Shown here in pieces: positions 1-38,708 of a DNA stretch of 64,000 bases. The number at the start of each line of letters is the position of its first letter. Position 1 is the stretch's first letter. Position numbers and translations under genes: made by a program. The stretch lies in the NCBI GenBank assembly GCA_021740585.1, contig JAIOZM010000001.1, forward strand, positions 43,747-107,746, written 5' to 3'. This stretch comes from Bacteroidales bacterium. Its GTDB lineage: Bacteria; Bacteroidota; Bacteroidia; Bacteroidales; GCA-2748055. The notes beneath the pieces were generated by a model, which did not search any database, was not told where the DNA came from, and saw only the letters and a program-made list of their open reading frames with translations.

Positions 1-994
1 TGAATCCAAGATTGGAACTGCTGTATTCCGGAACTTCATAATTTCTGCTAAATATGGTGCAGTGACTGGCTGACATATTGAAGGCGCCTCCCCTAATTAC
101 ACGGGTTGATCCGCTTGGGGGACCTTGTGGATTTGTTGTCGGGCTTGAAATATAGTATGTAGGACTGTAAAAATCCATACACCACTCCTGTACGTTTCCG
201 CTCATATCATAACAACCATATGCGTTAGGTAATTTTTTACCAACTTCCTGAGTTTTACGATTGGAATTTGTATTATACCACGCAACCGAATTAATAAGGT
301 TGCTGCCTGCATAAGGATTTTGATTTTTTAAGCTATTATCGCCAGCAGCATATTCCCACTCAGCTTCTGTAGGTAAGCGATAAGTAGTTCCGCTGCTTCT
401 GTTTATTTTCCCAATAAATTCAAGCACATCCACATAACTCACTCTTTCAACAGGACATTGTGGGCAGGAATTATTTTCAGCAGGATTTGTACCCATTACC
501 TGAAACCACTGAGCCTGAGTTATTTCGTATTTACTTAGGTAAAAATCATCAACAGTTATTTTATGAATGGGTTTTTCATCATTTTCACCAGACTTTGAGC
601 CCATATTAATGCTTCCCCCGGTTACAAAAACAAATTCAATATCAAAATTTAATTTTTGACTACCTCTTATTTCGAATACGATCTCATTGGAAAAGAGGTC
701 CTGAAATTCTTCTAAAACACGCCAGGTAATCTGTCTGTTTGAACCCGAATAAATTTTAGCGCCAACATCACCCGAAACTTTCTGAAGAGGACCTGAAAAG
801 GTTCTGCCACCGTCTGTAGAAACATATAATTCAATTTCAAAGCTTTCTAACTGGTTATAATAATTGAAATCATAATTAACTATAATAAAATCACCTTTTT
901 GTACCGCCCGTATATTTGAAATGGATTGGGTAAAACAAATGGCTGGTGTCAGAAATAAAAATACGACTAAAGACTTTCGAATAAAACTAATCAT
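1..994 (-). CDS. Secreted FGE-sulfatase (SUMF1/formylglycine-generating-enzyme-like) domain protein; N-terminal 331 codons only, C-terminus lies left of the window
   Basis: Own translation of the minus strand from ATG 994..992: MISFIRKSLVVFLFLTPAICFTQS (signal peptide), a ~100-aa beta-rich N-domain, then FGE-type motifs YLSKYEITQAQW, RLPTEAEWEYAA, YGCYDMSGNVQEWCMDFY, RVIRGGAF, SSSNLGF. The frame is open to base 1. It is absent from the ORF track because no stop lies in the window. Confidence 0.8.
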   Translation of the reverse strand, partial: MISFIRKSLVVFLFLTPAICFTQSISNIRAVQKGDFIIVNYDFNYYNQLESFEIELYVSTDGGRTFSGPLQKVSGDVGAKIYSGSNRQITWRVLEEFQDLFSNEIVFEIRGSQKLNFDIEFVFVTGGSINMGSKSGENDEKPIHKITVDDFYLSKYEITQAQWFQVMGTNPAENNSCPQCPVERVSYVDVLEFIGKINRSSGTTYRLPTEAEWEYAAGDNSLKNQNPYAGSNLINSVAWYNTNSNRKTQEVGKKLPNAYGCYDMSGNVQEWCMDFYSPTYYISSPTTNPQGPPSGSTRVIRGGAFNMSASHCTIFSRNYEVPEYSSSNLGF

Positions 995-1249: not shown

Positions 1250-2218
1250 ATGCTAAAAACTATGAACCTGAAGAAACCCTTAATTTTCGCCCTGTCTGGG
1301 GCCGTTATTTTCGCGAACTCATGTTCCTCACCTCAAAAAATTCAGCAAACACAACCTGAACAATATGAGGTAAGTCCTGTACTTGAAGAACAAGCGAGCA
1401 CTTTAAAACGAAAAGTTGCCATCGCCAGATTTTCAAACGAGACTAAATACGGAAAAAGCATTTTTTATGACAAGGAAAATGATCCTCTTGGGAAGCAAGC
1501 TATGGATATTCTTACAGCAAAGCTTGCATCTACAGGAAAATTTATGCTTTTCGAAAGATCTGATCTGGATAAAATTATGGAAGAGATGAATCTGGGAGGT
1601 AATAATGATTCCGTTGTTATTAATGCAGATTATCTGATCATTGGGTCGGTATCTGAATTCGGACGGAATGTGGAGGGTGATGTTGGAGTTGTTAGCCGAA
1701 CCAAAACACAAACAGCCAGAGCCACAGTTAATATTCGCCTGGTTGATGTATATTCCGGACAAATTATTTATTCAGAGGAAGGTACCGGAGAAGCTACCTC
1801 AGAAGCCAAACAGGTTATGGGAGTTGGAGGCCAGGCTGGATATAACGAAACATTGAACGACCGGGCTATCTCTGCGGCCATCTCCAAACTTGTTAATGAT
1901 ATTATCCAAAACCTGTTGGATAAACCATGGCGGTCATATATTTTAGATATGGAGGATGGTAATATTATTATCTCAGGTGGTGAAAGTCAGGGCCTTACCA
2001 CTAATAAAGTTCTTGCCGTTATTGAAAAAGGTAAAAAAGTTAAAAACCCTCAAACCAATATGTATATTGAATTGCCCGGAAGAGAAGTGGGGAGAATAAG
2101 GGTGCTAAGTATGTTTGGAGATAATGAGTTGAACGAGGTATCTATTTGTGTGGCGGAAAGCGGAACCATTCCCACCTCTGATTTCGGGAAATACTTTATC
2201 CAGGAAATAGAAAAATAA
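1250..2218 (+). CDS. CsgG/LpoB-like outer-membrane lipoprotein with extra C-terminal domain
   Basis: Lipobox FANSC. KRKVAIARFSNETKYG ... GKQAMDILTAKLASTGKFMLFERSDLDKIMEEMNLGG matches the CsgG/HfaB-type core (VAV.pF.n ... l.t.L..sg.f.vveR..l..v..E). First gene of a four-gene lipoprotein operon with 1-50 nt gaps. Confidence 0.7.
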   Translation: MLKTMNLKKPLIFALSGAVIFANSCSSPQKIQQTQPEQYEVSPVLEEQASTLKRKVAIARFSNETKYGKSIFYDKENDPLGKQAMDILTAKLASTGKFMLFERSDLDKIMEEMNLGGNNDSVVINADYLIIGSVSEFGRNVEGDVGVVSRTKTQTARATVNIRLVDVYSGQIIYSEEGTGEATSEAKQVMGVGGQAGYNETLNDRAISAAISKLVNDIIQNLLDKPWRSYILDMEDGNIIISGGESQGLTTNKVLAVIEKGKKVKNPQTNMYIELPGREVGRIRVLSMFGDNELNEVSICVAESGTIPTSDFGKYFIQEIEK

Positions 2219-2219
2219 C

Positions 2220-2582
2220 ATGAAAAAATTATTAGTTTATTTAGTAGCAATTACACTTGTCTTTGGTATGTCATGTGCCGGAAACCGAACCATGGTAACT
2301 CAGGTATCGGATGCCAGCTATCTCGTTTTTTACGGGAAGAAATCCATGACAGCAGATGAGTATGGTCATTTTGTCGAGAATATGTATGAAGCGAAAATTG
2401 ATGACGTTACTACATTTAAAGTTGAATTGACCAAGAAGAGAAAGGACAACTTATTCGGAAGCAAAGTTTATCAGGTTGCGCCCGGAAAACACACAATTAA
2501 AGTTTATAAAAATGGGAATCTGATTATTAATAAGGTAATCTTTATTTCTAATCAGGAAACCATGGAGTTTGAATTATTATAG
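2220..2582 (+). CDS. Small lipoprotein, PEGA-like beta-sandwich (tentative)
   Basis: Signal/lipobox VFGMSC. The C-terminal pattern VAPGKHTIKVYKNGNLIINKVIFISNQETMEFEL resembles PEGA-type domains. The start is 1 nt after the CsgG-like stop. Confidence 0.45.
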   Translation: MKKLLVYLVAITLVFGMSCAGNRTMVTQVSDASYLVFYGKKSMTADEYGHFVENMYEAKIDDVTTFKVELTKKRKDNLFGSKVYQVAPGKHTIKVYKNGNLIINKVIFISNQETMEFELL

Positions 2583-2632
2583 CACTTTCTAACCAAATTA
2601 TAATTGTTTATTTCAAGACTAAACCTAAATCT

Positions 2633-2980
2633 ATGAGAAAATTATTTAAGTTAACTTTTTTGTTGTTAGGTGTATTTATACTTAGCAACTGTTCCGCTCC
2701 TAAACCACTCTATTATTGGGGTAACTATCAAGATACCTACTATAAGAATATGAAAAAGGCCGATGAGAAAGCCTACGACAATCACATAGCTACATTAGAT
2801 TTCATTCTAACAACTTCAGCAGAAAATGAGGTCAGGGTACCTCCTGGAATATATGCCGAGTATGGTTATATTAAACTTGCTGAAGGTAATCCAACTGAGG
2901 CCAGAAAGTTTTTCGAACTTGAGATGGCAACATATCCTGAATCGGCCCAGTTAATGACATTACTATTAGATAATCTTTAA
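2633..2980 (+). CDS. DUF4810-like lipoprotein
   Basis: Lipobox LSNC. Motifs PLYYWGNYQDTYY and VPPGIYAEYGYI...A.KFFELEMATYPES match my recollection of the DUF4810 family, which travels with CsgG-like and DUF799 genes. Confidence 0.7.
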   Translation: MRKLFKLTFLLLGVFILSNCSAPKPLYYWGNYQDTYYKNMKKADEKAYDNHIATLDFILTTSAENEVRVPPGIYAEYGYIKLAEGNPTEARKFFELEMATYPESAQLMTLLLDNL

Positions 2981-2992
2981 AAAATTATAGCT

Positions 2993-3715
2993 ATGAAACG
3001 ATATATCATATTTGGAATATTTCTAATCCCTTTTTTGTTTAGTTCCTGTACAACAACAAAGCTGACTAAACAACAGGCTTATCCTAAAATGTATGAGGAG
3101 AACCCATTGTCGCTGGTTGTTGCTCCACCAATAAATAATGAAACAGCCGCAGATGCCGGCGAATATTACCTTTCCACTATAGCCATTCCTACTACTTTGC
3201 AAGGCTTTTATATTTTCCCAATTCCTATCGTAATGGATATACTTAAGGATGAAGGAGCATACAATACAATTCATGAAATCCCTCAGCCGGTTATTGCACA
3301 AAAGATGTATGAATTATTTGGTGCCGATGCCACTTTATTTACAAATATTCTGAAGTGGGATAAAAAGTACAGGGTTACAGCTGCTTCTGTGGTAGTCTTG
3401 ATTGATTATAGAATTGTTTCTGGTAAGACAGGAGAAATCCTTTGGTCTCATGCAAAAGAAGTGGCAGTTGATACTTCGGTTGATACCGGGGCAGGCGGAA
3501 TAGCCGGATTGATAGCCGATGCTGTATTAACGGCTGCTAGCACGGCTCTTACAGATTACGTACCGGTTGCCAGAGCGGCAAACAATTATGCAATGATTCC
3601 TTTGCCTTATGGAAAGTATCATCCTTCCTTTGGCCTTGATAAGGAAACAAAAGTTGTTGTTTATAAGTCCAAAATTGAAGAATCCGGCGGCGGTCTGGAA
3701 CCGGATACAGAATAA
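2993..3715 (+). CDS. DUF799 (GNA1162-like) lipoprotein
   Basis: Lipobox FSSC. LVVAPPINNETAADAGEYYLSTIAIPTTLQGFYIFPIPIV and LFGADATLFTNILKWDKKY fit the DUF799 pattern (vlPp.N.s ... GYYVfP ... fGADAvLy..I..w). Confidence 0.7.
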   Translation: MKRYIIFGIFLIPFLFSSCTTTKLTKQQAYPKMYEENPLSLVVAPPINNETAADAGEYYLSTIAIPTTLQGFYIFPIPIVMDILKDEGAYNTIHEIPQPVIAQKMYELFGADATLFTNILKWDKKYRVTAASVVVLIDYRIVSGKTGEILWSHAKEVAVDTSVDTGAGGIAGLIADAVLTAASTALTDYVPVARAANNYAMIPLPYGKYHPSFGLDKETKVVVYKSKIEESGGGLEPDTE

Positions 3716-3737
3716 ACCTTTATTAAATTTTGTAAAC

Positions 3738-4289
3738 ATGATTAAATTCTTAAAAAAATCAGGTAAAGTCCTGCTAATTGCGGGTTTGATGGTAACCGGA
3801 TTTGCTTTTACAGCAAATTCTCAAATATTGCTTGGACCCGATTATGGACTTGAGGCAGCCAGTTTGAATGGCAATTCTCATACAAGAAGTGGAGGTCAGT
3901 TGAGCGCCAGCTATTTTATTAATCCGAATATCGCGTTTCGATTAACAATTTCTGCTTTTAGTAAGGAATTGGTGGATGCCGATTTTGCAACTATTGCCAA
4001 CTGGACAGTTGTTTCACAATTGTTTTCTGTGAATTATTATTTTCTGACATCAAATTTGCGACCTTATGTCAGCTTTGGCGGAGGTTTGTATAATGATAAA
4101 ATCAGTGATGAAAATGTTGTCGGGTATTACAATGATAACAGGCTTTATGTTGCACCGGAAGTTGGATTTTTAGCTAGTGTCTCACCAAAGCTTAAGCTGA
4201 ATGGGGGCATCAGGTATAATGTGGTTTTTGATACCGACGGTTCTCTGCTTACCTTCATAGGCCTTAAAGTGCCTCTGGTTTCGCATTAA
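3738..4289 (+). CDS. Small outer-membrane beta-barrel protein (OmpW/OprF-N-like porin family)
   Basis: Track ORF 3609..4289 trimmed to the in-frame ATG at 3738, which gives the signal peptide MIKFLKKSGKVLLIAGLMVTGFAFTANSQ. Alternating hydrophobic strands, with a C-terminal LTFIGLKVPLV-type strand. Confidence 0.6.
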   Translation: MIKFLKKSGKVLLIAGLMVTGFAFTANSQILLGPDYGLEAASLNGNSHTRSGGQLSASYFINPNIAFRLTISAFSKELVDADFATIANWTVVSQLFSVNYYFLTSNLRPYVSFGGGLYNDKISDENVVGYYNDNRLYVAPEVGFLASVSPKLKLNGGIRYNVVFDTDGSLLTFIGLKVPLVSH

Positions 4290-4307
4290 CAGTGCTGAAT
4301 AAAATAT

Positions 4308-4345
4308 AAATCAACGTTGGTGGATTTTTCCACTTTCGTTGATTT
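4308..4345. terminator. Bidirectional hairpin between convergent genes
   Basis: aaatcaacg (4308-4316) pairs with cgttgattt (4337-4345). An inner gtgga/tccac pairing is also present, followed by a T-rich tail. It sits between the stop at 4289 (+) and the stop at 4412 (-). Confidence 0.6.
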
Positions 4346-4411
4346 TATATTGTTGTGAAGAAATAGAAACAACAGCTTTCTAATTTTTCTGACGGAATAT
4401 GACCTTAGGTT

Positions 4412-6091
4412 TTATTCCGTTTTTCTGTTGACGAATACAAAATCACCTCCCTGATCGCCACTATTTTTAATTTTCCCAAATTGCGGAATGTTTTCGGTCG
4501 ATTCCATTACAGGGATTTTCAATTTGTAATAAAAGTCCTCAGCCGTAACGAATTTCTCCCTGTTTTCTTTAAGGTATTTAATCATATAAAACATAAAGGC
4601 ACTTTTATCCGGTACTTCATTAAGGTCTCCTGATGTCATCGCATTCCGGCTTGGACTTTCATATTTCTGAAGTATATCCATTCCGGCACCAGAAGGGAGC
4701 CCTCTTGTTCTGAATATTCCTCCGCTAAAACAGGCATCGGCAATAACAAGTGTGTGTTTCGTGGGCAGACTGCTAACAATGGCAGTAATTTTTGAATTGC
4801 TTAACCACAAAAGATTATTACCGGCTTCCGCATCTGCCGGCAGCCAGTAGCCTTTGCTACTTGCCTCATCCCAAACGCCATGACCTGAAAATACAATAAT
4901 CAAATTATCGTCGGGAGTTAAAGTTTTTTCCAGGTATTTTAAAGTGTCGATAATATCAAATGAAGTGGCATTATACATCTTAAATATATTCTCATCTTTA
5001 AAATTGTATTGTTCATTAAGAACCTGACTTAATTTAGTGAGATCTTCAACAGGTCCCTTTAGGTCGTTTACCATGGGGTCTTTGTATTCTGTTACACCAA
5101 TCAAAACCGCAAAAAATGACGCAGTCGATTCTTCAGGAGTTTTTTCAACAGTCTTTTCAGGTCTGTAATCGACAGAGATAATTCTTTCACTCCTATTGTG
5201 AAACTCATCGAATGCTTCCACCAGGATTGAATTTTCACCTACTTCCAGTATTGTTTTTGCAGAAAAACTCCCATCCACATTAAGGTGAGCTTCCTCTCCA
5301 TTTACAGCCACGGTAAATACTCCCGACAAATCTGTAGCTTTTCCATATATCATGCATTCCGGAGAGCCCAGAATATCCTCGTTTACCGGACTTTCAATAA
5401 TAAGATCAGGAGCTTTATAATCTTCCTTATCAATTTCTGTTTTCAGTGCATTTCTGTAATTTCTAATGGAATTGCTTCCTGCTAAAAAGATATTTATTTC
5501 AGCCTTATGATTGCCGGGAGGAATCATTTCCTCCCCTAAAGAACTAAGCAGGCTCTCAGTTTTTTTATTACCTGCTTTTGTTGCATCCACGAAAATCCAG
5601 GCTTTTGCGATTTCTGCATCGTCAATTCTGTCACACAGTTCATCAACCGACATCGAAAAGAAGAATTCGTTTTCTGTGGCGTCTATAGGAACCAGATAAA
5701 GTTTGCCTTTCTCATCATACGATATTTTCCCATTGAAATAGACAATTAGCTCAGCTTTTATTTTATCCTGATCCTGCGATTTGAGTTTAACAATCCGGCT
5801 AAGCATCAATTTAATGTGTGTGCTGAGGGCATCAGGGTAAAAGGAAATATTTGATTTTGCAACCAGTTTATTCCGTTCAAGAATCATCCTGAACTTTTCA
5901 GCATCATAAATGGAATGTAATACATCATCGGTATATCTGTCTGCATAGATCTGATAATTCTCGTTCCCAATTACCAATGCATATCTGTAGGTCAGATCGT
6001 TGGTGGGAGGAATAATCTTCCATGCAGGTTGGGCGCTGAGTTGAAAATGCGCAATGAAAAAGAAGGCAAAAGAAAGCACAGGTATTTTCAT
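4412..6091 (-). CDS. Secreted tandem caspase-fold protein: N-terminal pseudo-caspase, Ig-like linker, C-terminal active-looking peptidase C14 domain
   Basis: Signal peptide MKIPVLSFAFFFIAHFQLSAQ. C-domain: FAVLIGVTEYK ... LIIVFSGHG (His404, codon 4882..4880) ... TLVIADACFSG (Cys454, codon 4732..4730). N-domain is alignable (YALVIGNENYQ ... LIVYFNGKI ... WIFVDATKAG) but has Lys and Thr at the dyad positions. Confidence 0.8.
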   Translation of the reverse strand: MKIPVLSFAFFFIAHFQLSAQPAWKIIPPTNDLTYRYALVIGNENYQIYADRYTDDVLHSIYDAEKFRMILERNKLVAKSNISFYPDALSTHIKLMLSRIVKLKSQDQDKIKAELIVYFNGKISYDEKGKLYLVPIDATENEFFFSMSVDELCDRIDDAEIAKAWIFVDATKAGNKKTESLLSSLGEEMIPPGNHKAEINIFLAGSNSIRNYRNALKTEIDKEDYKAPDLIIESPVNEDILGSPECMIYGKATDLSGVFTVAVNGEEAHLNVDGSFSAKTILEVGENSILVEAFDEFHNRSERIISVDYRPEKTVEKTPEESTASFFAVLIGVTEYKDPMVNDLKGPVEDLTKLSQVLNEQYNFKDENIFKMYNATSFDIIDTLKYLEKTLTPDDNLIIVFSGHGVWDEASSKGYWLPADAEAGNNLLWLSNSKITAIVSSLPTKHTLVIADACFSGGIFRTRGLPSGAGMDILQKYESPSRNAMTSGDLNEVPDKSAFMFYMIKYLKENREKFVTAEDFYYKLKIPVMESTENIPQFGKIKNSGDQGGDFVFVNRKTE

Positions 6092-6191
6092 GCCGTTTTG
6101 AGTGAATAAGGTGTGGATAATCCTAAAAAACTAATTTATTAGTCAGCTAAACAGAATTGACTAGTTCAGGAGAAAACAGAAAAAATCGCTT

Positions 6192-6836
6192 TTAATTAAT
6201 TCCCATAAGAGTCTCAAGCTTCTCCTCATTGAGTTTTAGCTTGTTCTTTAATTCCTCACGAACAACTTTTTTAGCTATCTGGAGAGATTGATCAGTATCG
6301 TAAAATAAGCGTGACTGAACCTCAATCGTTCCTTTTTTCACATCCCGGTATAGCTTGAAAGATGGGTTTACATAACCAAGTTCCGTAGCGATAATATTCT
6401 TTGCAGAGGCTACTATTTCAGTTACCGATGCCGCTTCTTCAGTACTTAGCTGAGCATTCCCTACATTTGCACTAATAAGAGCGTTCATCTGGGTTTCAAT
6501 CTGACCGGCCAGCAATAACTTTCCAAGTTCAATGGATTGCATTTCTGCTGCAGACTTGGATTCTGCCACACCATTGCCGTCAGCATAAATATAACGTTGA
6601 GAACCATCTTCCTTGGTTTCGAGCTGTTTAAGCCAGGAGCTCTCAACTAATTTAGCCATAGGCAAGGATCCGGGAGGAACATACCAACCGTCTTTTTCCA
6701 GACTTTTAGCTTCCTTTCTTGCTTCTTTAATGGCCTTTTCTTTCAGCTCTTTTGTTAATTCCTTGTTCGTGTTTTGGGCATAAGATGAAAAAGAGAACAA
6801 GATAACAGCAATCACAAGCAAATTAAGTTTTTTCAT
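6192..6836 (-). CDS. Secreted coiled-coil / LPP20-like protein (tentative)
   Basis: Signal peptide MKKLNLLVIAVILFSFSSYAQ. A lysine/glutamate-rich helix is followed by GNGVAESKSAAEMQSIELGKLLLAGQIETQMNALIS, which resembles the LPP20-type A..A...A..eLa.qi core. Confidence 0.4.
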   Translation of the reverse strand: MKKLNLLVIAVILFSFSSYAQNTNKELTKELKEKAIKEARKEAKSLEKDGWYVPPGSLPMAKLVESSWLKQLETKEDGSQRYIYADGNGVAESKSAAEMQSIELGKLLLAGQIETQMNALISANVGNAQLSTEEAASVTEIVASAKNIIATELGYVNPSFKLYRDVKKGTIEVQSRLFYDTDQSLQIAKKVVREELKNKLKLNEEKLETLMGIN

Positions 6837-6953
6837 GTGTTTTAGGGTTTGGATTATAGGACAAGTTAATAAAAATGTAATTCTAAATGAAATTTAATCA
6901 GGTATTTATGAAAATATTATGTAACTTTATTTGCATTCTAATTCTATTCAGAA

Positions 6954-7871
6954 ATGTTAAGATCGGCTCTTATTCTAATCTTTTATACTCTTCTGACAAG
7001 TCCATTATTTTCTCAGGACAGAGTTCGCACCCGCGGTGAAGCACAGTTAGAGTGGTATAGCAGTATGTCGAGACTCGAAGTGGAAAAGCAGGCTAAAGAA
7101 TTAGCCACAATCGATGCTCTTGAAAGGGCATTCGGTAGAGTCGTGGTGCAGGGAAACGCTACTTTTATTGAAAATGTTCAATCGGGACAGACTGTTGAAA
7201 CTAATTCTGTGTTTAACATGATTGCCAACACCTCAGTAAGAGGTGAGGTTTATGAAGAGATAAGCTGTAGTTTTGAAGAAATTAAGGGTGTTAAGCTGGT
7301 TGAAGGCAATAAAATTGAGGTAACGGACATTCGGTGTAACATAACAATTATTGCCGTTCAGATAGAAACTCCTCCAATAAGTTTTGAAGGAAATGCTATG
7401 AATTGCCTTCACCGGGGATGTATTTCGGAAGTGTTTAATAGTGGAGATGATTTGTATTTTCAATTTAAATCGCCGGTATCAGGCTATTTAAGTATTTTCC
7501 TTGATGATGGGGAAACTGCTTCCCGTCTGTTACCATACAGAAATATGATCGATGAATTTGAGTCTGCAGTACCGGTTTCTGCAGATGTAAATTATGTATT
7601 TTTTAGTGAAGAAAATAACCAGCTTAAGATACCCTCTTTCATCATTGATGAATATATTCTGACCACTGATTCCCCTCAGGAGTTAAATCGATTATTTGTT
7701 ATTTTTTGCTCGGAGTCATTCCTAAAACCCAATCTCAATAGAGGTGAGCAGGATGCATTATTACCCGACGGAATTTCTTCTGAAGATTTCCAAAAATGGC
7801 TGCATAAAAACAGAGGCTATTTTAAAAATAAGATGCAGGTGGAAATTATCGACTTGCAGATTTTAAGATGA
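6954..7871 (+). CDS. Secreted protein with C-terminal DUF4384-like domain
   Basis: Signal peptide. FNSGDDLYFQFKSPVSGYLSIFLDDGETASRLLPY ... NRLFVIFCSE fits the DUF4384 pattern (Gd.v.l.v....dgYlyvf..d..G.v..LfP), a domain often found with caspase-fold proteins. Confidence 0.6.
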   Translation: MLRSALILIFYTLLTSPLFSQDRVRTRGEAQLEWYSSMSRLEVEKQAKELATIDALERAFGRVVVQGNATFIENVQSGQTVETNSVFNMIANTSVRGEVYEEISCSFEEIKGVKLVEGNKIEVTDIRCNITIIAVQIETPPISFEGNAMNCLHRGCISEVFNSGDDLYFQFKSPVSGYLSIFLDDGETASRLLPYRNMIDEFESAVPVSADVNYVFFSEENNQLKIPSFIIDEYILTTDSPQELNRLFVIFCSESFLKPNLNRGEQDALLPDGISSEDFQKWLHKNRGYFKNKMQVEIIDLQILR

Positions 7872-7997: not shown

Positions 7998-8630
7998 ATG
8001 AAAACTACACACAAGAATTTCCTGTTGATTTTTTCAATAATGATATTGTTTACCTCCTGCAAGGAAAAATCTTTGGTAAAGGAAGCTTCACAAGCAAGCA
8101 GTTCTGTTGATGAAGTTGTATCTGTTCAGGGAACAGATAATATGCCTGTGGAGGAAGACTTGCTTCGAAATGCAGGTTTAGATGGAGATATAGAAACAGT
8201 GAAAGAAATGATTGCAAGGAATGTGAATGTAAATGCATTGGATCAGGACGGTAGATCGGCTCTTATGTTTGCTTCCTTTAACGGTCATCTGGAAATTGTA
8301 AGGACTCTGAAAGAAAAGGGGGCGAAAATTAATCTGCAGGATTATGTTGGACGAACGGCTCTTATGTTTGCCTCTTCAGGAAAATTTCCTGAAACAGTGA
8401 AGTTTTTGCTTGAGAATGAGGCTGACCCAAATCTTATCGATCGGGAGGAAAACTTCACAGCCATTATGTTTGCTGCAGCAGAAGGAAATATGGAAGTGGT
8501 AAAGATATTACTTACTTATGGCGCCGATCCTAATCTGAAAGATGTTGATGGGGAAACGGCTGAATTGTTTGCACGCACCAATGGTCATCTTGAAGTGGCT
8601 GATTTTTTAAAGGAATGGACCGAAAAATAA
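7998..8630 (+). CDS. Ankyrin-repeat lipoprotein
   Basis: Lipobox FTSC. Four or more ANK repeats are visible (DGRSALMFASFNGHLEIVRTLKEKGAKIN, GRTALMFASSGKFPETVKFLLENEADPN, FTAIMFAAAEGNMEVVKILLTYGADPN, GETAELFARTNGHLEVADFL). Confidence 0.85.
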   Translation: MKTTHKNFLLIFSIMILFTSCKEKSLVKEASQASSSVDEVVSVQGTDNMPVEEDLLRNAGLDGDIETVKEMIARNVNVNALDQDGRSALMFASFNGHLEIVRTLKEKGAKINLQDYVGRTALMFASSGKFPETVKFLLENEADPNLIDREENFTAIMFAAAEGNMEVVKILLTYGADPNLKDVDGETAELFARTNGHLEVADFLKEWTEK

Positions 8631-9266: not shown

Positions 9267-10295
9267 TTATTGCTTCATAAATTTTGTGATATGTGAGCTA
9301 TTGTCCTGCCCTGAAAGTTTAATGAAATACAATCCCGGTTTTAGAGATTCAATGCTTATTTCATTTCCTTCAGTTTGGAGGATCAGCTTACCTAATGCAT
9401 CATATATTTCCTTACTTCCCTGATAAAAACCGGGGATTTTAAGTACATCTTTTGCCGGATTTGGATAGATTGAATATTGAGGAAAAGTATCAGAATTACT
9501 CTTTGGTATACCCGTATTATCCCTGTAAATATAATCCACAAACTCGGGTCTGTCGATAAAGGGATTGCGGTTATGCTGGTAGCTGTATATTACATCGTTA
9601 CGATTTTTCTCGAAGTCATCAACCGGATCGAGATCGTGCCATTCCAGCAGTGTGCTTAATAAGGCGTGAACCGGTTCAGATGTGTGATCATCGGCAGGGA
9701 AATAATCGATTACTTCTAAATCAGGATCCCCATTTTCGCCCTCGTATCGGGTAGCCATATAAAAAATGATCCGCGCCACATCGCCTTTTACAGCTGCTCT
9801 GGGTTCCCATGTGTAATTGGCGTCGGAATAGAAACATCCTGTAGCCCCATCAGGGTCAGTATATGCAACACCGCCATTATCAAACCAGCGACTGTCGCGT
9901 TTGCTGTTAACGGTAATATCGGTAGGTCTGAGATGGTGTGCGTCTCTTCCCGGAATATCATCTTCATCGAATGCTCCATGCGACTTAGCCCATACATGTT
10001 CACGGTTCCAGCCGGTGTTGTTATTATATTCCTGAGCGGCATTTACGCTCCAGCCGGTATAAAAGAGAATTACATTCGCTGAATTGTTTGGATCGCGATC
10101 TGAAACTTTAAGTATATCCCATATATCGGTTGAGGAGCCGGAATAAGGATATGCAGTGTGTCCTTTTATGATGTTATGCAAAGCGGTTTTAAGTTCTTCG
10201 GCTTTTAGACCTTCAGCTGAATCATAATATCCGGTTGGAATTTGGGCTAACAAGCTTAGTGGCAGGAAGAATAGAATGTAGAATATATATCTCAT
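9267..10295 (-). CDS. Secreted endonuclease I family nuclease with T9SS C-terminal sorting domain
   Basis: Signal peptide. NREHVWAKSHG and DAHHLRPTDITVNSKRDSRWFD fit the endonuclease I / extracellular nuclease family. The C-terminal ~80 aa (YSIYPNPAKDVLKI ... GLYFIKL) looks like a Por secretion tail. Confidence 0.75.
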   Translation of the reverse strand: MRYIFYILFFLPLSLLAQIPTGYYDSAEGLKAEELKTALHNIIKGHTAYPYSGSSTDIWDILKVSDRDPNNSANVILFYTGWSVNAAQEYNNNTGWNREHVWAKSHGAFDEDDIPGRDAHHLRPTDITVNSKRDSRWFDNGGVAYTDPDGATGCFYSDANYTWEPRAAVKGDVARIIFYMATRYEGENGDPDLEVIDYFPADDHTSEPVHALLSTLLEWHDLDPVDDFEKNRNDVIYSYQHNRNPFIDRPEFVDYIYRDNTGIPKSNSDTFPQYSIYPNPAKDVLKIPGFYQGSKEIYDALGKLILQTEGNEISIESLKPGLYFIKLSGQDNSSHITKFMKQ

Positions 10296-12288: not shown

Positions 12289-12601
12289 AAAAATTGCTTG
12301 TTGAGGGAAATATTTTTTATTCATCAATTAAATTATATCCAATCAGCCAAAATTCCCTGAAGATCTAAGAAGCAATTTCCCTGTATTATCAAGGGCTTTC
12401 ACGAAGTCTGGATTTAAGTTCAGGGAAATTATTTAGAATCTTTATTTCTTAGCTGTTGAAGTGTTTTTTGATGAAGTTCTTGTTTAATTCGGGTAAATAA
12501 TTGTGCATTACGGCACTTCCGATGGCTATGAAGTGGATTTTTATTTGTCATCCAAAATAATATCAAGAAGAAGTTTCATGTATATGTTTGATTACAAGCG
12601 T

Positions 12602-13111
12602 TTATTTCATGAAATTTAAAAGATCTTTTTCAATAGATTTGACCGGAGTTTCAATTATCCTCCCAATCTCTGCTTCAGAACGAAAAACGATAAGCGTAGG
12701 TACTCTAAGTATATTTAATGATTCAAGTTTAGTTCCCGGAGCTTGTTTTCGGGTATCAACAGCTATCATATGGATGTTCTCCATATCAACGCCAATTTCA
12801 GAGAGAACCTTAAGCATTCTTGGCACTTCTCTTTTGGTATCGCCACACCAGGTTCCAAGAACAATAGTGTAGCTAAAGCCAGGAGCCCGGCTTTTAATTA
12901 GTTTTTCTATTATGGAACTTTCGGACTTGTAGGAATCAAATTCTTTATGGTAATATTCTCCAAATACAGAGCCCTTAATTCCGTCCATATCGATTTCTCC
13001 GATTAGGATTTCTCTATTTATTCTTGCATCCACTATGGTCTGATTCATATTTTGTCCGAAGCTTATTAATGAAATTAATCCAAGAAATGATAATAAAACA
13101 ATCTTTTTCAT
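12602..13111 (-). CDS. Secreted thioredoxin-fold protein (TlpA/thiol-disulfide oxidoreductase-like)
   Basis: Trimmed to ATG 13111, giving the signal peptide MKKIVLLSFLGLISLISFGQ. VLGTWCGDTKREVPRM (WCxxT/S-type thioredoxin-fold motif) and VPTLIVF are present. Confidence 0.6.
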   Translation of the reverse strand: MKKIVLLSFLGLISLISFGQNMNQTIVDARINREILIGEIDMDGIKGSVFGEYYHKEFDSYKSESSIIEKLIKSRAPGFSYTIVLGTWCGDTKREVPRMLKVLSEIGVDMENIHMIAVDTRKQAPGTKLESLNILRVPTLIVFRSEAEIGRIIETPVKSIEKDLLNFMK

Positions 13112-13136
13112 ATCTATTTTAGATAAAATATTCAAA

Positions 13137-13398
13137 AAAGAATACCACGGAGACACGGATTACACAAAGAAACACGGAGAAAGAAAAATATTAGAAGAAT
13201 ATTTAACCAGTTGTAGCGGACTTTGGTAATTAGTAAAAATACGTAAAATCACCCTCCGTGACCCTCCATGTAATCTGTGTCTCCGTGGTATTCTTTAATG
13301 TTGTTTCAATTAATTTGGTTTGAATTTACACAAAACATTTAACTCTGTGACCCTCCGTGTAATCCGTGTCTCCGTGGTATTCTTCAATATTGTTTCTA
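13137..13398. repeat. Three copies of a ~50-bp CTCCGTG-rich element (one inverted, two direct)
   Basis: Core tgtaatc(c/t)gtgtctccgtggtattctt occurs at 13268-13296 and 13358-13386. Its reverse complement (aagaataccacggagacacggattaca) is at 13137-13163. Flanking ctccgtg / ccctccgtg heptamers accompany all copies. Confidence 0.75.
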
Positions 13399-15555
13399 CT
13401 AGGCCTTAATACTACTTATTAGTATTTCAAGAATCTTCTTAGCTGCAACAGATACCGATGTGCCCGGACCAAAAATAGCCATTACCCCCTCTTTATAAAG
13501 GAAATCATAATCCTGAGCAGGAATAACCCCACCGGCAATGACTAAAATATCTTCACGACCAGCTTTCTTTAGTTCCTGAATTACCTGCGGAACCAAAGTT
13601 TTATGTCCGGCTGCAAGGCTCGACACCCCAAGCACATGCACATCATTTTCAATGGCTTGTCGGGCTGCTTCGGCCGGTGTTTGGAAAAGGGGTCCGATAT
13701 CTACATCGAATCCGATATCGGCATATCCGGTTGAAACTACTTTTGCCCCACGATCGTGACCATCCTGTCCCATTTTGGCGATCATTATTCTTGGCTGGCG
13801 GCCTTCCAATTGGGCAAATTCCTTAGCGAGCTCACAGGCTCTTTTAAAATTAGCATCTTTCATTGATTCAGAAGAATATATACCGGAAATAGATCGGATT
13901 ACTGCTTTGTATCTGCCTGAAACTTCCTCAATTGCATCAGAAATTTCACCTAAAGTAGCCCGGTTTTTTGCTGCTTCAACAGAAAGTTCCAGTAAATTTC
14001 CTGTTCCTGTTTTTACGGCATGGGTAATATCCTTTAAGGATTTAATCACATCAGTTTCATTCCGTTCAGATCTTAGTTTTTGAAGTCTTTTGATCTGATT
14101 TTCCCTCACAACGGTATTGTCAACTTCCAGAATATCCATAGGTTCTTCCTGAGATAATTTGAAACGGTTAATTCCAACTATGGTATCTTTTCTTGAATCG
14201 ATTCTGGCTTGTTTCCTTGCAGCAGCTTCTTCAATCCTCATTTTAGGTAATCCGGTTTCAATGGCCTTTGACATTCCGCCCAGTTTTTCAACCTCTTCAA
14301 TAAGAGCCCAGGCTTTATGTGCTATCTCATGAGTTAGGCTTTCAATATAATATGAACCTCCCCAGGGATCTACAGAATTACAAATCCCGGTTTCTTCCTG
14401 AAGATAAATTTGTGTATTTCTGGCTATTCGTGCCGAGAAATCGGTAGGTAAGGCTATTGCTTCATCGAGGGCATTGGTATGCAGAGACTGGGTGTGTCCT
14501 AAACCTGCAGCCAAAGCTTCCACACAGGTTCGGGCAACATTGTTAAAGGGATCTTGCTCGGTTAAGCTCCAACCCGAAGTTTGAGAGTGAGTTCTGAGAG
14601 CCATGGATTTCGGATTCTTAGGATTGAACTGTTTCACAATCTTCGCCCAAAGCAATCTGGCTGCTCTCATTTTGGCAATTTCCATAAAGTGATTCATTCC
14701 AACGGCCCAGAAAAATGATAAGCGAGGTGCAAATGCGTCGATATCAATTCCGGCAGCTATACCCGTACGAATATACTCAAGACCATCGGCCAGGGTATAA
14801 GCCAGTTCGAGATCGGCAGTAGCCCCTGCTTCCTGCATATGGTATCCTGAAATACTTATAGAGTTGAATTTTGGCATTTTTTTCGAAGTATATTCGAAAA
14901 TATCTGCAATTATCCTCATTGAAGTTTCGGGTGGATAAATGTATGTATTCCTAACCATGAATTCCTTCAGAATATCGTTTTGAATGGTTCCGCTAAGTTC
15001 TTCCAGTTTTGCACCCTGTTCCAGGGCAGTAACTATATAAAAGGCCATTATCGGAAGTACGGCTCCGTTCATTGTCATTGAAACCGACATTTTATTCAGA
15101 GGAATTTCATCGAACAGAATTTTCATGTCGAGGATAGAGTCGATAGCCACCCCTGCTTTTCCAACATCACCTTCCACTCTTTCATGATCGGAATCGTAGC
15201 CACGGTGAGTAGCCAGGTCGAAGGCAACGGAAAGTCCTTTTTGTCCTGCAGCAAGATTTTTACGGTAAAAGGCATTCGATTCTTCCGCAGTAGAAAATCC
15301 GGCATACTGCCTGATGGTCCAGGGACGGGTAACATACATAGTGGAGTAGGGTCCCCGCAGGAAAGGAGCTTTCCCGGCAATAAAATCCAGATGCTCCATT
15401 TTTTCAAGATCTTCCTGTGTATAAACCGGCTTTACAAGTATATGCTCAGGTGTTTCCCATTCATTTTCAATGAGATTTTCTTTTACCCGGCTTTCACTAT
15501 CTTTTCCTGATAGGCTTGCCTTTTTGGGATTTATTTTTTTAAAATCGGGCTTCAT
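13399..15555 (-). CDS. mutB: Methylmalonyl-CoA mutase large (catalytic, B12-binding) subunit
   Basis: 718 aa. Contains [23 protein letters not shown] and [17 protein letters not shown], plus the C-terminal B12 domain [11 protein letters not shown]. Confidence 0.95.
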
Positions 15556-36365: not shown

Positions 36366-38708
36366 ATGAAACGATACATAATCACTGCAATAATACTGGT
36401 GTTTTTTGGGACAACCTATGCCTCTTCGCAAAATGCCAAACAGTTCTACAAAGTAGGCGAGCAATTCTTTGAGAATAAAATGTATGATGATGCCATCGAA
36501 CAATTTACTGCTGCCATCAACTTTGATCCTGAAATGGATAAAGCCTATTTGTTCAGGGCTCAGGTGTATGAGAAACAAAGAAATTATGCATCTGCCCTTC
36601 TCGATTATAATAAACTTTGCATTTTTGATGAAGGTGAGGAAGAATATTTCTATAAAAGTGCTGAAATGAGTTACAATTTGAAGGATTATTCTAAATGCCT
36701 GACTACAGTTGAAAAAGCCCTTAAATTGAACAGCAGCTATTCACAGGCATTGGAATTAAAATTTAATGCACTATTTGCTCTGGAACAATATGCTGAAGCT
36801 TTGGATGTGTCAAAAAGAGCATTGAGGTACAAGGAAAGTGAAGTAAACTTTTATAATTATGGCAGAATTAACGAGGTGATGGGGCTCAATGATGATGCTA
36901 TTGATGCCTATACAAAGGCCCTTCGTAAAAACAGCTCTTTTCTGGAAGTTTATGTTAAACTGGCTGATTTATACCGCCGTCAGGCAAATCTGACATCGGC
37001 TATGGAAACCATTAATAATGCAATTGGAATAAGTAATAATTTTATCCCGGCATATGAGGTAAGAAGTGCAATTTATTCAGATCAACTTAACTATACAAAA
37101 GCTATTGAAGATATTTCAACCATTCTATCCCTTGATCCTTCCAACACGAAAATGTTCTTTTTAAGAGGAAAATATTATCAGGGATATGCTCAGCATATGA
37201 ATGCCATTACTGATTTTACCAAAGTAATAAGTCTGGATCCTGCATTTGTTGAAGCTTATTTTAACAGAGCCCAATCATACGAACAGGTTCAAATGTTGGA
37301 TAATGCTATTAATGATTATAAGCAGTTAGCATTGATTGCTGAAGATAATGAAGAGGCAATGGAAATGTTAGCACAGGCTGAAGGCCGGCTATTTGAATTG
37401 AACAGGGAAAATAAAAAACCAAAATTAGTACTTTCAACCCCGGAGGAGCAATTGGGAAGGGTTCTTCATATTCCCAGATCTGAAAATGTTGTACCTATTG
37501 TTGGAACAGCCACAGATGATAGCGAAATAAAATCTATTAAGGTTAATGATTTGACTACTCCTTTTACGAAAAAAGATAAGGGCTTTGAATTTTTGACTTC
37601 AGTTAACGTTAACGGATTGAAAAATTTAAAGGTTGAAGTTACCGACGTATACGATAATACAGAATTGGTTTTGTTCGACATTTTGAGGACTGAGGTTGAA
37701 AAACCGGTGGTTAAAATAATAGCGCCTTATGCTTCTGACAATAATGTAATTTATTTAGATACTCAGGATCCAATGATTTATGTAGAAGGCGTTATTTCTG
37801 ATGAAAGTCTGATAAAGGGAATTTATATCGATGGTGTTGTGGCAAGTTATGTCCCCAGCGATCTGAATCCAACCTTTGGAGCTATGATTTCAATTAAAAA
37901 TAAGAATCAGTTCACCATTAAAGCTACTGACGGATTTGGAAATGTCTCCGAAACCACTTTTTCTCTAAACCGGGAGTCAGCTAATTTGCAGGCTGACAAT
38001 CCCATGGGAAAAACCTGGGTTGTGTTTATTGAAAATTCCAATTATCAAAGTTTTGCTAGTTTGGAAGGACCAACCAAGGACATTTTACTTATGAAAACGG
38101 CTCTGGCGAATTATAGTATTCATAACTTTATACATAAGAAAGATATGACGAAGCAGGATATGGAGAGGTTCTTCGCTATTGAACTTCGTGATCTTCTTAG
38201 TAGCAACAGGGTAAACTCCTTACTTGTTTGGTACGCCGGTCATGGGAAATTTGTTAATGAAACCGGTTACTGGGTCCCTGTCGATGCTAAAAGGGATGAC
38301 GAATTTACTTACTTCAATATTAATGCACTAAAGGCTTCCATGCAATCATACCCAACCAATGTTAATCACACCCTTATTATTACAGATGCCTGTGAATCGG
38401 GTCCTTCTTTTTATCAGGCCATGAGATCGGGTTTGCAGGATAGAAATTGCAATGATGTTTCTGCAGTAAAATTAAAATCTTCTCAGGTATTCTCATCTGC
38501 AGGTTATGAGCTGGCTGTCGACAATAGCCAGTTTACCAGAACATTTGCTAACTCCTTGGCCAACAATGTAGATGCTTGCATTCCAATTGAAAGTATCGTT
38601 CAAAAAGTTACAGATGCTGTGGTTAATTCAAAACAGCAAAAACCTCAGTTTGGCAAAATTGCCGGTCTTGAGGATGAAAATGGCACATTCTTTTTTATAA
38701 CAAAATAA
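36366..38708 (+). CDS. Secreted TPR - 2x Ig-like - caspase (peptidase C14) protein
   Basis: Signal peptide MKRYIITAIILVFFGTTYASSQ, followed by about 9 TPRs (aa 25-345) and two Ig-like modules. The caspase domain has WVVFIENSNYQ ... LLVWYAGHG (His626, 38241-38243) ... LIITDACESG (Cys676, 38391-38393). The C-terminal QFGKI..(E/D).G.F(F/V)F tail is shared with the 4412..6091 protein. Confidence 0.8.
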   Translation: MKRYIITAIILVFFGTTYASSQNAKQFYKVGEQFFENKMYDDAIEQFTAAINFDPEMDKAYLFRAQVYEKQRNYASALLDYNKLCIFDEGEEEYFYKSAEMSYNLKDYSKCLTTVEKALKLNSSYSQALELKFNALFALEQYAEALDVSKRALRYKESEVNFYNYGRINEVMGLNDDAIDAYTKALRKNSSFLEVYVKLADLYRRQANLTSAMETINNAIGISNNFIPAYEVRSAIYSDQLNYTKAIEDISTILSLDPSNTKMFFLRGKYYQGYAQHMNAITDFTKVISLDPAFVEAYFNRAQSYEQVQMLDNAINDYKQLALIAEDNEEAMEMLAQAEGRLFELNRENKKPKLVLSTPEEQLGRVLHIPRSENVVPIVGTATDDSEIKSIKVNDLTTPFTKKDKGFEFLTSVNVNGLKNLKVEVTDVYDNTELVLFDILRTEVEKPVVKIIAPYASDNNVIYLDTQDPMIYVEGVISDESLIKGIYIDGVVASYVPSDLNPTFGAMISIKNKNQFTIKATDGFGNVSETTFSLNRESANLQADNPMGKTWVVFIENSNYQSFASLEGPTKDILLMKTALANYSIHNFIHKKDMTKQDMERFFAIELRDLLSSNRVNSLLVWYAGHGKFVNETGYWVPVDAKRDDEFTYFNINALKASMQSYPTNVNHTLIITDACESGPSFYQAMRSGLQDRNCNDVSAVKLKSSQVFSSAGYELAVDNSQFTRTFANSLANNVDACIPIESIVQKVTDAVVNSKQQKPQFGKIAGLEDENGTFFFITK

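Follow-up and report, generated by a model that had tools for sequence, protein, structure and literature searches.

An exported Bacteroidales protein joining a dyad-less caspase domain to a caspase with an intact catalytic dyad

Architecture of the tandem protein and its dyad-less half

We analysed a 64,000-nucleotide stretch of a Bacteroidales bacterium assembly (GCA_021740585.1, contig JAIOZM010000001.1, positions 43,747 to 107,746 of the forward strand), which is called the window throughout, and focused on the gene at positions 4412..6091 of its minus strand. The gene was verified as an open reading frame (ORF) with the stop codon at 4412-4414, and it encodes an exported protein of 559 amino acids (aa) that is composed of a pseudo-caspase domain, an immunoglobulin (Ig)-like domain and a caspase domain. 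The protein is identical to MCF8378820.1 (P0001) and MCF8389082.1, which are annotated in GenBank as 'caspase family protein [Bacteroidales bacterium]' and nothing further. An earlier note, made from the sequence alone, had described a dead and a live caspase-fold domain in tandem in a single exported polypeptide; the fold, the status of the two dyads and the export signal all agree with that description.

All mapped parts of the gene lie on the minus strand. A Sec-type signal peptide for signal peptidase I (aa 1-20, MKIPVLSFAFFFIAHFQLSA; 6032..6091), with a predicted cut before Gln21, is followed by the pseudo-caspase domain (aa 30-205; 5477..6004), which has an N-type caspase fold with strands β1-β5 only and lacks the catalytic dyad, as judged by Pfam, hhalign, AlphaFold2 (AF2) and Foldseek. 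The active domain at the C-terminus (aa 325-559; 4415..5119) is a C-type caspase of family C14 that includes a p10-like region, as identified by Pfam and Foldseek. Between the halves lies an Ig-like β-sandwich spacer of the Glucodextran_B type (aa 228-310; 5162..5410), exactly where an Ig-like module had been suspected (aa ~228-310). Pfam PF09136 matches aa 228-308 with an E-value of 8.9e-13, and the spacer is all-β in the AF2 model. Comparisons across the family were based on 80 full-length relatives of the same architecture with 34-60% identity, about 80 such proteins being found by the protein search. The AF2 model of the whole protein, computed with this 80-sequence alignment, has a mean predicted local distance difference test score (pLDDT) of 81.5 and a predicted template modelling score (pTM) of 0.63. 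The linkers that flank the Ig domain (aa 207-222 and 315-322) fall below a pLDDT of 50 in this model.

The two halves are related to each other. BLASTP of one half against the other gave an E-value of 4e-5 with 23% identity across 156 aa, with the motifs that the earlier note had paired in register, and hhalign of the N-half and C-half profiles built from the 80 orthologues gave a probability of 97% (E ~7e-11), both of which agree with the alignment proposed in that note. The residues that it had assigned to the two catalytic sites, Lys122 and Thr171 in the first half and His404 and Cys454 in the second, were all found at these positions.

Foldseek with the full-length model retrieved MALT1, Geobacter GSU0716 and metacaspases with E-values of 2.5e-9 to 1e-7 over ~240-320 aligned columns. 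The C-half is the probable source of these matches, given the weaker matches of the isolated N-half, which was therefore modelled and searched separately. On its own it passes the Pfam Peptidase_C14 (PF00656) threshold marginally (21.8 bits, cut-off 21.4), and its AF2 model has a pLDDT of 84.6 and a pTM of 0.82. The best PDB matches of this model are all of the caspase fold, with MALT1 at the top (E 1.4e-5, template modelling score 0.55), and further matches include fungal and plant metacaspases, caspase-9 and caspase-3, and the caspase-like domain of Raptor. A search of the PDB with the sequence profile of the N-half returned only MALT1, weakly (E 0.64). The N-half models contain strands β1-β5 and three helices; helices α4 and α5, the terminal strands, the p10-like part and β6 are missing. 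β6 is the canonical strand through which caspases and MALT1 dimerise. The caspase fold of this half, which had been set as a test in the earlier note, is thus upheld by the confident model and by best matches that are caspase-fold only.

At the catalytic His position of the dead domain (Lys122, codon 5726..5728), Lys is found in 79 of the 80 orthologues, Arg in one and His in none, and Lys also occupies this site in 22/22 tandem ORFs from genome and metagenome loci. The segment Asp169-Ala170-Thr171 (5579..5587; Thr171 at 5579-5581) is a degenerate 'D-x-C' motif in which the Asp is retained and the Cys is gone. Position 171 is Gln in 22 orthologues, Leu in 16, Thr in 10, Cys in 6, Ile in 6 and Ser in 4, with other residues in the remainder. 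Because this position varies and position 122 is near-invariant, Lys122 is a conserved feature of the family and Thr171 is not. Loss of the dyad was the other point to be checked across orthologues, and it is conserved: His occurs in 0/80 and Cys in 6/80 at the dead sites, and the live dyad is kept in 80/80. Gly121 and Asp169 of the dead half are invariant and the NE(D/N)YQ loop after β1 is nearly so; the invariant and near-invariant residues group after strands β1, β2, β3 and β4. The mean pairwise identity among the orthologues is 0.47 in the dead half, 0.44 in the Ig domain, 0.22 in the linkers and 0.62 in the live half. Since the dead half exceeds the Ig domain and far exceeds the linkers, it appears to be retained under purifying selection rather than decaying.

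The N-terminal half had been regarded as a copy of the C-terminal half, a view that did not hold: it belongs to a different caspase subfamily (N-type, or partner-type). With the hidden Markov model (HMM) built from the dead half, active N-type domains reach ~80-135 bits and the C-halves of its own family 12-42 bits. The profile search with the dead half, which covered 1.84 billion representative proteins, gave 2,047 matches at E <=1e-10. Sixteen representatives score above ~160 bits and most of them belong to the tandem family, the exceptions being P0123, P0125 and P0126, which have two N-type domains. After a clear gap the next tier follows at 118-141 bits, with 134 proteins within the 150 listed. 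In nearly all of these the N-type domain is C-terminal, and the motifs YYAGHG and DACFSGG are intact in every one inspected.

A pattern derived from the dead half, scanned over 185,579 species-representative genomes, gave 80 loci, all in metagenome-assembled genomes (MAGs) of Bacteroidota except two contigs that are probably mis-binned. These two (L052 and L084) are binned as Clostridia and Faecalimonas MAGs and carry typical Bacteroidota N-type caspase genes, so that mis-binning is more probable than transfer. In the fetched loci, stand-alone N-type domains are always C-terminal in their proteins, and 80 of the 81 in which both motifs are readable keep the His, the Cys and the S1 Asp. The sole exception, in a Roseivirgaceae MAG (L037, 1553-3388, plus strand), retains GHG and has lost the catalytic Cys (LDTDGG). 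Every N-type domain located upstream of an Ig domain and a C-type caspase lacks the dyad (22/22 ORFs). We placed 126 domains in a neighbour-joining tree, which is indicative rather than definitive, its alignment having been made to the HMM of the pseudo-domain. In this tree the pseudo-domains group as a single clade (193/200 bootstraps) beside the active N-type domains, with the C-type domains as outgroup (200/200).

Intragenic duplication of the C-half was ruled out by the profile scores and the tree, which argue for fusion instead. The dead half arose once, from the N-type caspase lineage, and the window protein is a dead offshoot of one caspase subfamily fused to a live member of another.

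P0123 is active in both of its N-type domains. P0125 and P0126 are proteins of ~1020-1030 aa that start with a long N-terminal region; their first domain retains GHG and shows a Cys-to-Ser change (DASFSGG), and their second is intact. Like the window protein, these three carry two caspase domains in one exported or membrane-proximal protein of Bacteroidota type; unlike it, both domains are N-type and full-length, the first-domain His is kept and the cassette of Ig domain and C-type caspase is absent. It seems that dead/live pairs have evolved repeatedly in the caspase superfamily.

The active half and its export

Peptidase_C14 (PF00656) matches aa 327-464 of the window protein with an E-value of 2.7e-18 and 66.9 bits (cut-off 21.4), and the C-half alone scores 49.9 bits. 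His404 (4880..4882) and Cys454 (4730-4732), which lie in the motifs SGHG and DAC, are present in 80/80 orthologues. The segment Asp452-Ala453-Cys454 (4730..4738), in which each residue is found in 80/80, combines an S1-pocket Asp with the catalytic Cys. The second acidic S1-pocket residue, Asp350 (5042..5044), is likewise conserved in 80/80, and Glu492 is conserved in 77/80. In MALT1 the S1 residues are Asp365, Asp462 and Glu500 (PMC4626109). By position (after β1, at the D-x-C motif and in the loop that follows β5), Asp350, Asp452 and Glu492 appear to correspond to these three residues, a match that was obtained through indirect alignments. For Asp452 these were the alignment of the two halves and a HMMER alignment that places the Asp169 motif of the N-half on MALT1 LLDMC. 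Asp452 stands two residues before Cys454, as MALT1 Asp462 stands before Cys464 (D-M-C), and Asp350 aligns with the Asp of 'CVND' in the metacaspase AtMC4. Given the intact dyad and the acidic S1 pocket formed by Asp350, Asp452 and Glu492, the live domain should cleave after Arg or Lys, like metacaspases, orthocaspases and MALT1.

The motif G-G/S-I-F-R/K-T-R, defined from the alignment and the pLDDT profile, follows Cys454 at aa 457-463 (4703..4723) and lies in a disordered loop. Gly457, Ile459, Phe460, Thr462 and Arg463 are invariant, and position 461 is Arg or Lys in 78/80. The pLDDT is below 50 at aa 456-471 in the full-length model, and GGIFKTR is also found in non-tandem Ig-caspase relatives. 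GGIF(R/K)TR could be an autoprocessing site or an element of the substrate groove.

The Ig-like profile matches all 120 relatives listed. The 40 non-tandem relatives (P0081-P0120) all have active GHG...DAC motifs, and their N-terminal modules are β-propeller-like repeats, lipocalin-like domains (PF13648) or extra Ig domains. A second caspase gene in the window (36366-38705, plus strand) encodes an exported protein of ~780 aa with a signal peptide, tetratricopeptide repeats, two Ig-like domains and a C-type caspase whose dyad is intact (WYAGHG ... TDACESG). The Ig domain and the C-type caspase thus form a cassette that is common in Bacteroidota and is joined to many different N-terminal binding modules. 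Because the relatives carry other modules at this place, the dead caspase domain fills the slot that usually holds a binding module.

The N-terminus of the window protein consists of MK, a hydrophobic core and LSA|Q, and Gln is found at +1 (Q21) in 75/80 orthologues. In Bacteroidetes, signal peptidase I substrates follow a Q-rule, with Gln at +1 (PMC5837995), and the protein is predicted to be Sec-exported with an N-terminus that fits this rule. Lipoprotein anchoring was rejected, as the window protein has no lipobox Cys at +1. Secretion by the type IX secretion system (T9SS) was rejected as well, as Pfam gave no Por_Secre_tail (PF18962) match and the C-terminus is the conserved caspase strand GGDFVFV. 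With neither a lipobox nor a T9SS tail, the caspase is probably periplasmic. Elsewhere in the window, endonuclease I (9267-10295, minus strand) carries a Por_Secre_tail, which shows that a T9SS exists in this organism; the caspase protein makes no use of it.

Export of a caspase-fold enzyme had been called unusual in the earlier note, which is contradicted by three lines of evidence. Almost all full-length non-tandem Ig-caspase relatives start with a signal-peptide-like N-terminus. An early survey of prokaryotic caspase homologues reported N-terminal helices that are likely signal peptides, extracellular architectures and a frequent association with FGE-sulfatase domains (FGE, formylglycine-generating enzyme; PMC3501461). 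Gingipains, from the same phylum, are exported clan-CD proteases in which an inactivated subdomain A precedes the active subdomain B (PMC4626109).

Conserved neighbours of the tandem gene

Synteny was counted over 19 independent tandem loci, in which most missing neighbours are genes at contig edges. Directly upstream of the caspase gene lies p214 (6192..6836, minus strand), which encodes an exported 214-aa protein and is a probable operon partner by synteny. Its homologues, 55-77% identical, are found in 16/19 loci, usually directly upstream on the same strand, and the gaps to the caspase gene are 7-100 nt. The divergently transcribed p305 (6954..7871, plus strand) encodes an exported 305-aa protein with homologues of 38-47% identity in 16/19 loci. 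A gene for an exported ankyrin-repeat protein (7998-8630, plus strand) adjoins p305 in the window.

An active N-type partner caspase lies within ~3 kb of the tandem gene in 12/19 loci, and L002 and the P0070 contig probably have one too. The 64-kb window yielded no partner-type caspase, and neither did the +/-10 kb covered in L013. The tandem locus L005 contains a 262-aa C-type caspase (6801-7589, minus strand) and a WD40 β-propeller fused to an active N-type caspase (12353-14776, plus strand). Judged from L005, the N-terminal region of the partner caspase appears to be as variable as that of the Ig-caspase family.

The gene at 2..994 (minus strand), which is cut by the window start, encodes an exported FGE-sulfatase-domain protein identified by homology. 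It is a possible member of the cluster whose tie to the caspase gene is uncertain. An FGE-sulfatase gene occurs in 7/19 tandem loci, the window's copy counted, and precedes the partner caspase in the other six; the FGE-sulfatase protein of the window is 32% identical to the product of the one that precedes the partner caspase in L004. The first ~90 residues of its mature form (aa 22-112) are a module that it shares with nine Ig-caspase proteins (P0091, P0093, P0095, P0100, P0102, P0103, P0105, P0110 and P0117) with E-values of 1.6e-6 to 2e-14. In the window, the FGE-sulfatase gene is separated from the caspase gene by a lipoprotein operon on the plus strand (1250-4289), which encodes a CsgG-like protein (1250-2218), a 120-aa protein, a DUF4810 protein (2633-2980) and a GNA1162-like/DUF799 protein (2993-3715), followed by an outer-membrane β-barrel protein (ORF 3609-4289, start position uncertain). 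The CsgG-like operon was not found beside the tandem gene in other loci.

p214 has no match in Pfam, NCBIfam, PADLOC or the PDB, and the same sequence searches with p305 returned only a sub-threshold DUF4384 match (E 0.1). PADLOC recognises the caspase protein with its generic 'caspase' HMM only (E 5.7e-14) and gives no match for p214, p305 or the FGE-sulfatase protein; the NCBIfam model caspase_w_EACC1 scores 67.6 bits, below its cut-off of 140. A known anti-phage defence system was therefore rejected. A sigma-70 promoter and terminator scan of 4200-7100 was at background level (9 sites versus 8.1 expected), the consensus being inappropriate for Bacteroidota, so the operon structure rests on spacing and synteny.

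Possible roles of the dead domain

We tentatively favour, at a little under even confidence, a role of the dead domain as a non-catalytic docking or regulatory module. Four observations lead to this choice: the domain sits in the slot of binding modules, it is under apparent selection, the residues that it conserves map to the face of the sheet where live caspases have their active-site cleft, and the gene is tied to p214, p305 and often the partner caspase. The face of the former cleft would hold a protein ligand. The putative ligand face comprises the NE[DN]YQ loop, Gly-Lys122, Pro135-x-Asp137, Asp169 and the pseudo-specific motif FYPDA-x-NTHIKLA. The ligand would probably be encoded within the conserved cluster itself, as p214, p305 or the partner caspase, and its binding would position or gate it for the live domain.

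Several points weigh against the docking role. The S1-equivalent Asp63 of the dead domain is not conserved (Gln in 39, Asp in 22, Lys in 8 and Glu in 6 orthologues), which suggests that the old cleft is partly degraded and may not bind peptides in the caspase manner. The invariant Lys122-Asp169 pair might be a mere structural salt bridge. The argument from the shared N-terminal slot is circumstantial, and all tandem loci come from uncultured MAGs. Lastly, the full-length pTM of 0.63 is above the expectation for fully independent domains, so that the domains may pack in a partly fixed arrangement, the N-half perhaps against the C-half.

Such packing is at the heart of a second explanation, a pseudo-dimer within one chain like that of gingipains or separase, which the earlier note had raised and which we consider possible but doubtful: the dead domain would pack on the live domain of the same chain and supply the second protomer that enzymes of the caspase family often require for ordering their active-site loops. 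The fixed inter-domain geometry that the pTM suggests fits this arrangement, as does the absence of α4 and α5, which probably leaves one face of the dead domain's sheet in need of a covering partner, and gingipain R provides a direct precedent (PMC4626109). However, the dead domain lacks β6 and descends from another subfamily, and the Ig domain and two low-confidence linkers part the halves. Ig-caspase paralogues, moreover, have no caspase-like N-terminal domain, and because they carry unrelated modules there, the live domain does not generally need a dead one.

The origin of the dead domain gives some weight to a third explanation, which we hold to be unlikely: it would pair in trans with the nearby active N-type caspase, in the manner of FLIP, and activate it, restrain it or tether a two-step cascade. 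The dead domain branches from the N-type lineage as one monophyletic group, with the partner caspase as its closest live relative, the partner is close by in 12/19 loci, and N-type domains are all dead upstream of an Ig-caspase and intact in 80/81 stand-alone cases. The window and L013 speak against such pairing, with no partner caspase found in the former or within +/-10 kb in the latter, and so does the missing β6 interface, which means that the contact would have to be non-canonical. In its extended form, the whole cluster would be a periplasmic two-caspase cascade in Bacteroidia that is controlled by pairing of the pseudo-caspase with the neighbouring N-type caspase; the dead domain would unite the two proteases or restrain one of them, and p214 and p305 would serve as substrates, inhibitors or sensors. 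This extended form we regard as quite improbable.

Gingipains and many other clan-CD enzymes are made as zymogens, which is counted in favour of a removable pro-domain or inhibitor; the live domain would then stay latent up to a cut in the Lys/Arg-rich linker (aa 206-227) or in the GGIF(R/K)TR loop. Several Lys and Arg occur in this linker, which is disordered with a pLDDT of ~34, and the basic motif after Cys454 is invariant; with an identity of only 0.22, however, the linker is poorly conserved, and we judge this explanation very unlikely. Least likely of all is a functionless relic of a duplicated or fused caspase domain, or catalysis through other residues: although His, Cys and, in most members, the S1 Asp are lost, a single clade has been kept across MAGs labelled Bacteroidales, Rikenellaceae, Bacteroides and Bacteroidia with a mean identity of 0.47, several invariant residues, a near-invariant Lys and a confident compact fold, and no alternative nucleophile is conserved, Cys occurring at position 171 in 6/80 only.

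Among known systems, the gingipains R and K (RgpB and Kgp, family C25) of Porphyromonas gingivalis resemble the window protein as exported clan-CD proteins of Bacteroidota with a dead-then-live pair of caspase-like domains and an Ig-like domain, and they recognise P1 Arg or Lys by an Asp (PMC4626109). In gingipains, however, the Ig domain comes after two directly adjoining subdomains, whereas here it stands between the halves; gingipains also have a T9SS C-terminal domain and an N-terminal pro-domain, both of which are absent from the window protein. The latter belongs to family C14, with a dead half from a distinct C14 subfamily; no C25 match appears among its Pfam and NCBIfam matches up to E 10, and no gingipain among its top 50 fold matches. 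In the cFLIP(L)/procaspase-8 heterodimer, a dead paralogue is retained as a regulator of a live caspase, and here, similarly, a live N-type caspase encoded nearby has the dead domain as a derived paralogue. cFLIP, however, is cytosolic and a polypeptide of its own, with DED domains and a complete p20/p10 fold. The dead domain of the window protein is instead exported and truncated; it lacks the p10-like part and is joined to a caspase from another subfamily.

Bacterial pseudo-orthocaspases share prokaryotic C14 p20-type domains, substituted dyads and evolutionary retention with the window family (PMC6426788). They are mostly stand-alone Tyr/Ser variants in Alphaproteobacteria and Cyanobacteria; Bacteroidetes pseudo-variants account for 10/1078 sequences in that study, which mentions a few proteins with multiple p20 domains in passing (Klemencic et al. 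2019, PMC6426788). The window family differs in its Lys at the His site, its variable Cys site, its occurrence in Bacteroidia and its constant fusion upstream of a live caspase. MALT1 is the best structural match to both halves and likewise has an Ig domain adjoining the caspase and corresponding acidic S1 residues. It is a cytosolic eukaryotic protein with a death domain, however, is activated by homodimerisation and BCL10 filaments, and has no dead caspase domain; its Ig domain is also unlike the Glucodextran_B-type domain found here. Paracaspases are operationally defined by a Pfam Ig, Ig_2 or Ig_3 domain before p20 (PMC6426788), and the spacer matches PF09136 and not PF00047, PF13895 or PF13927, so that the protein falls outside this definition and the likeness is structural only. 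Separase is eukaryotic, intracellular, of a different family (C50) and regulated by securin, and it has no Ig spacer; from later structures, it has been proposed to carry a dead caspase-like domain ahead of the live one in the same polypeptide. The second domain has been disputed on modelling grounds (PMC4626109).

Gingipains and cFLIP thus already offer known cases of dead/live pairing of caspase-like domains, and separase is a proposed one. What is new in the window family is a C14 version with a conserved Lys-for-His exchange, a chimeric origin and a conserved cluster of genes for exported proteins. For work on the functions of bacterial caspase homologues, especially of the many exported ones in Bacteroidota, the family offers a defined, conserved system, made up of one live caspase, a dead domain with a live paralogue usually encoded beside it, and two tightly linked proteins. 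It is also a natural experiment in pseudo-enzyme evolution, with a single origin, replacement of His by Lys and loss of the p10-like part, and it parallels gingipain subdomain A and cFLIP. Should docking or partner regulation prove wrong, the family would remain a well-described architectural variant; should it be true, the dead domain would give a first mechanistic handle on periplasmic proteolysis by the caspase family in gut and environmental Bacteroidia. If the FLIP-like cascade were true, bacteria would have evolved, independently and outside the cytoplasm, a form of regulation in which a pseudo-caspase pairs with its paralogue.

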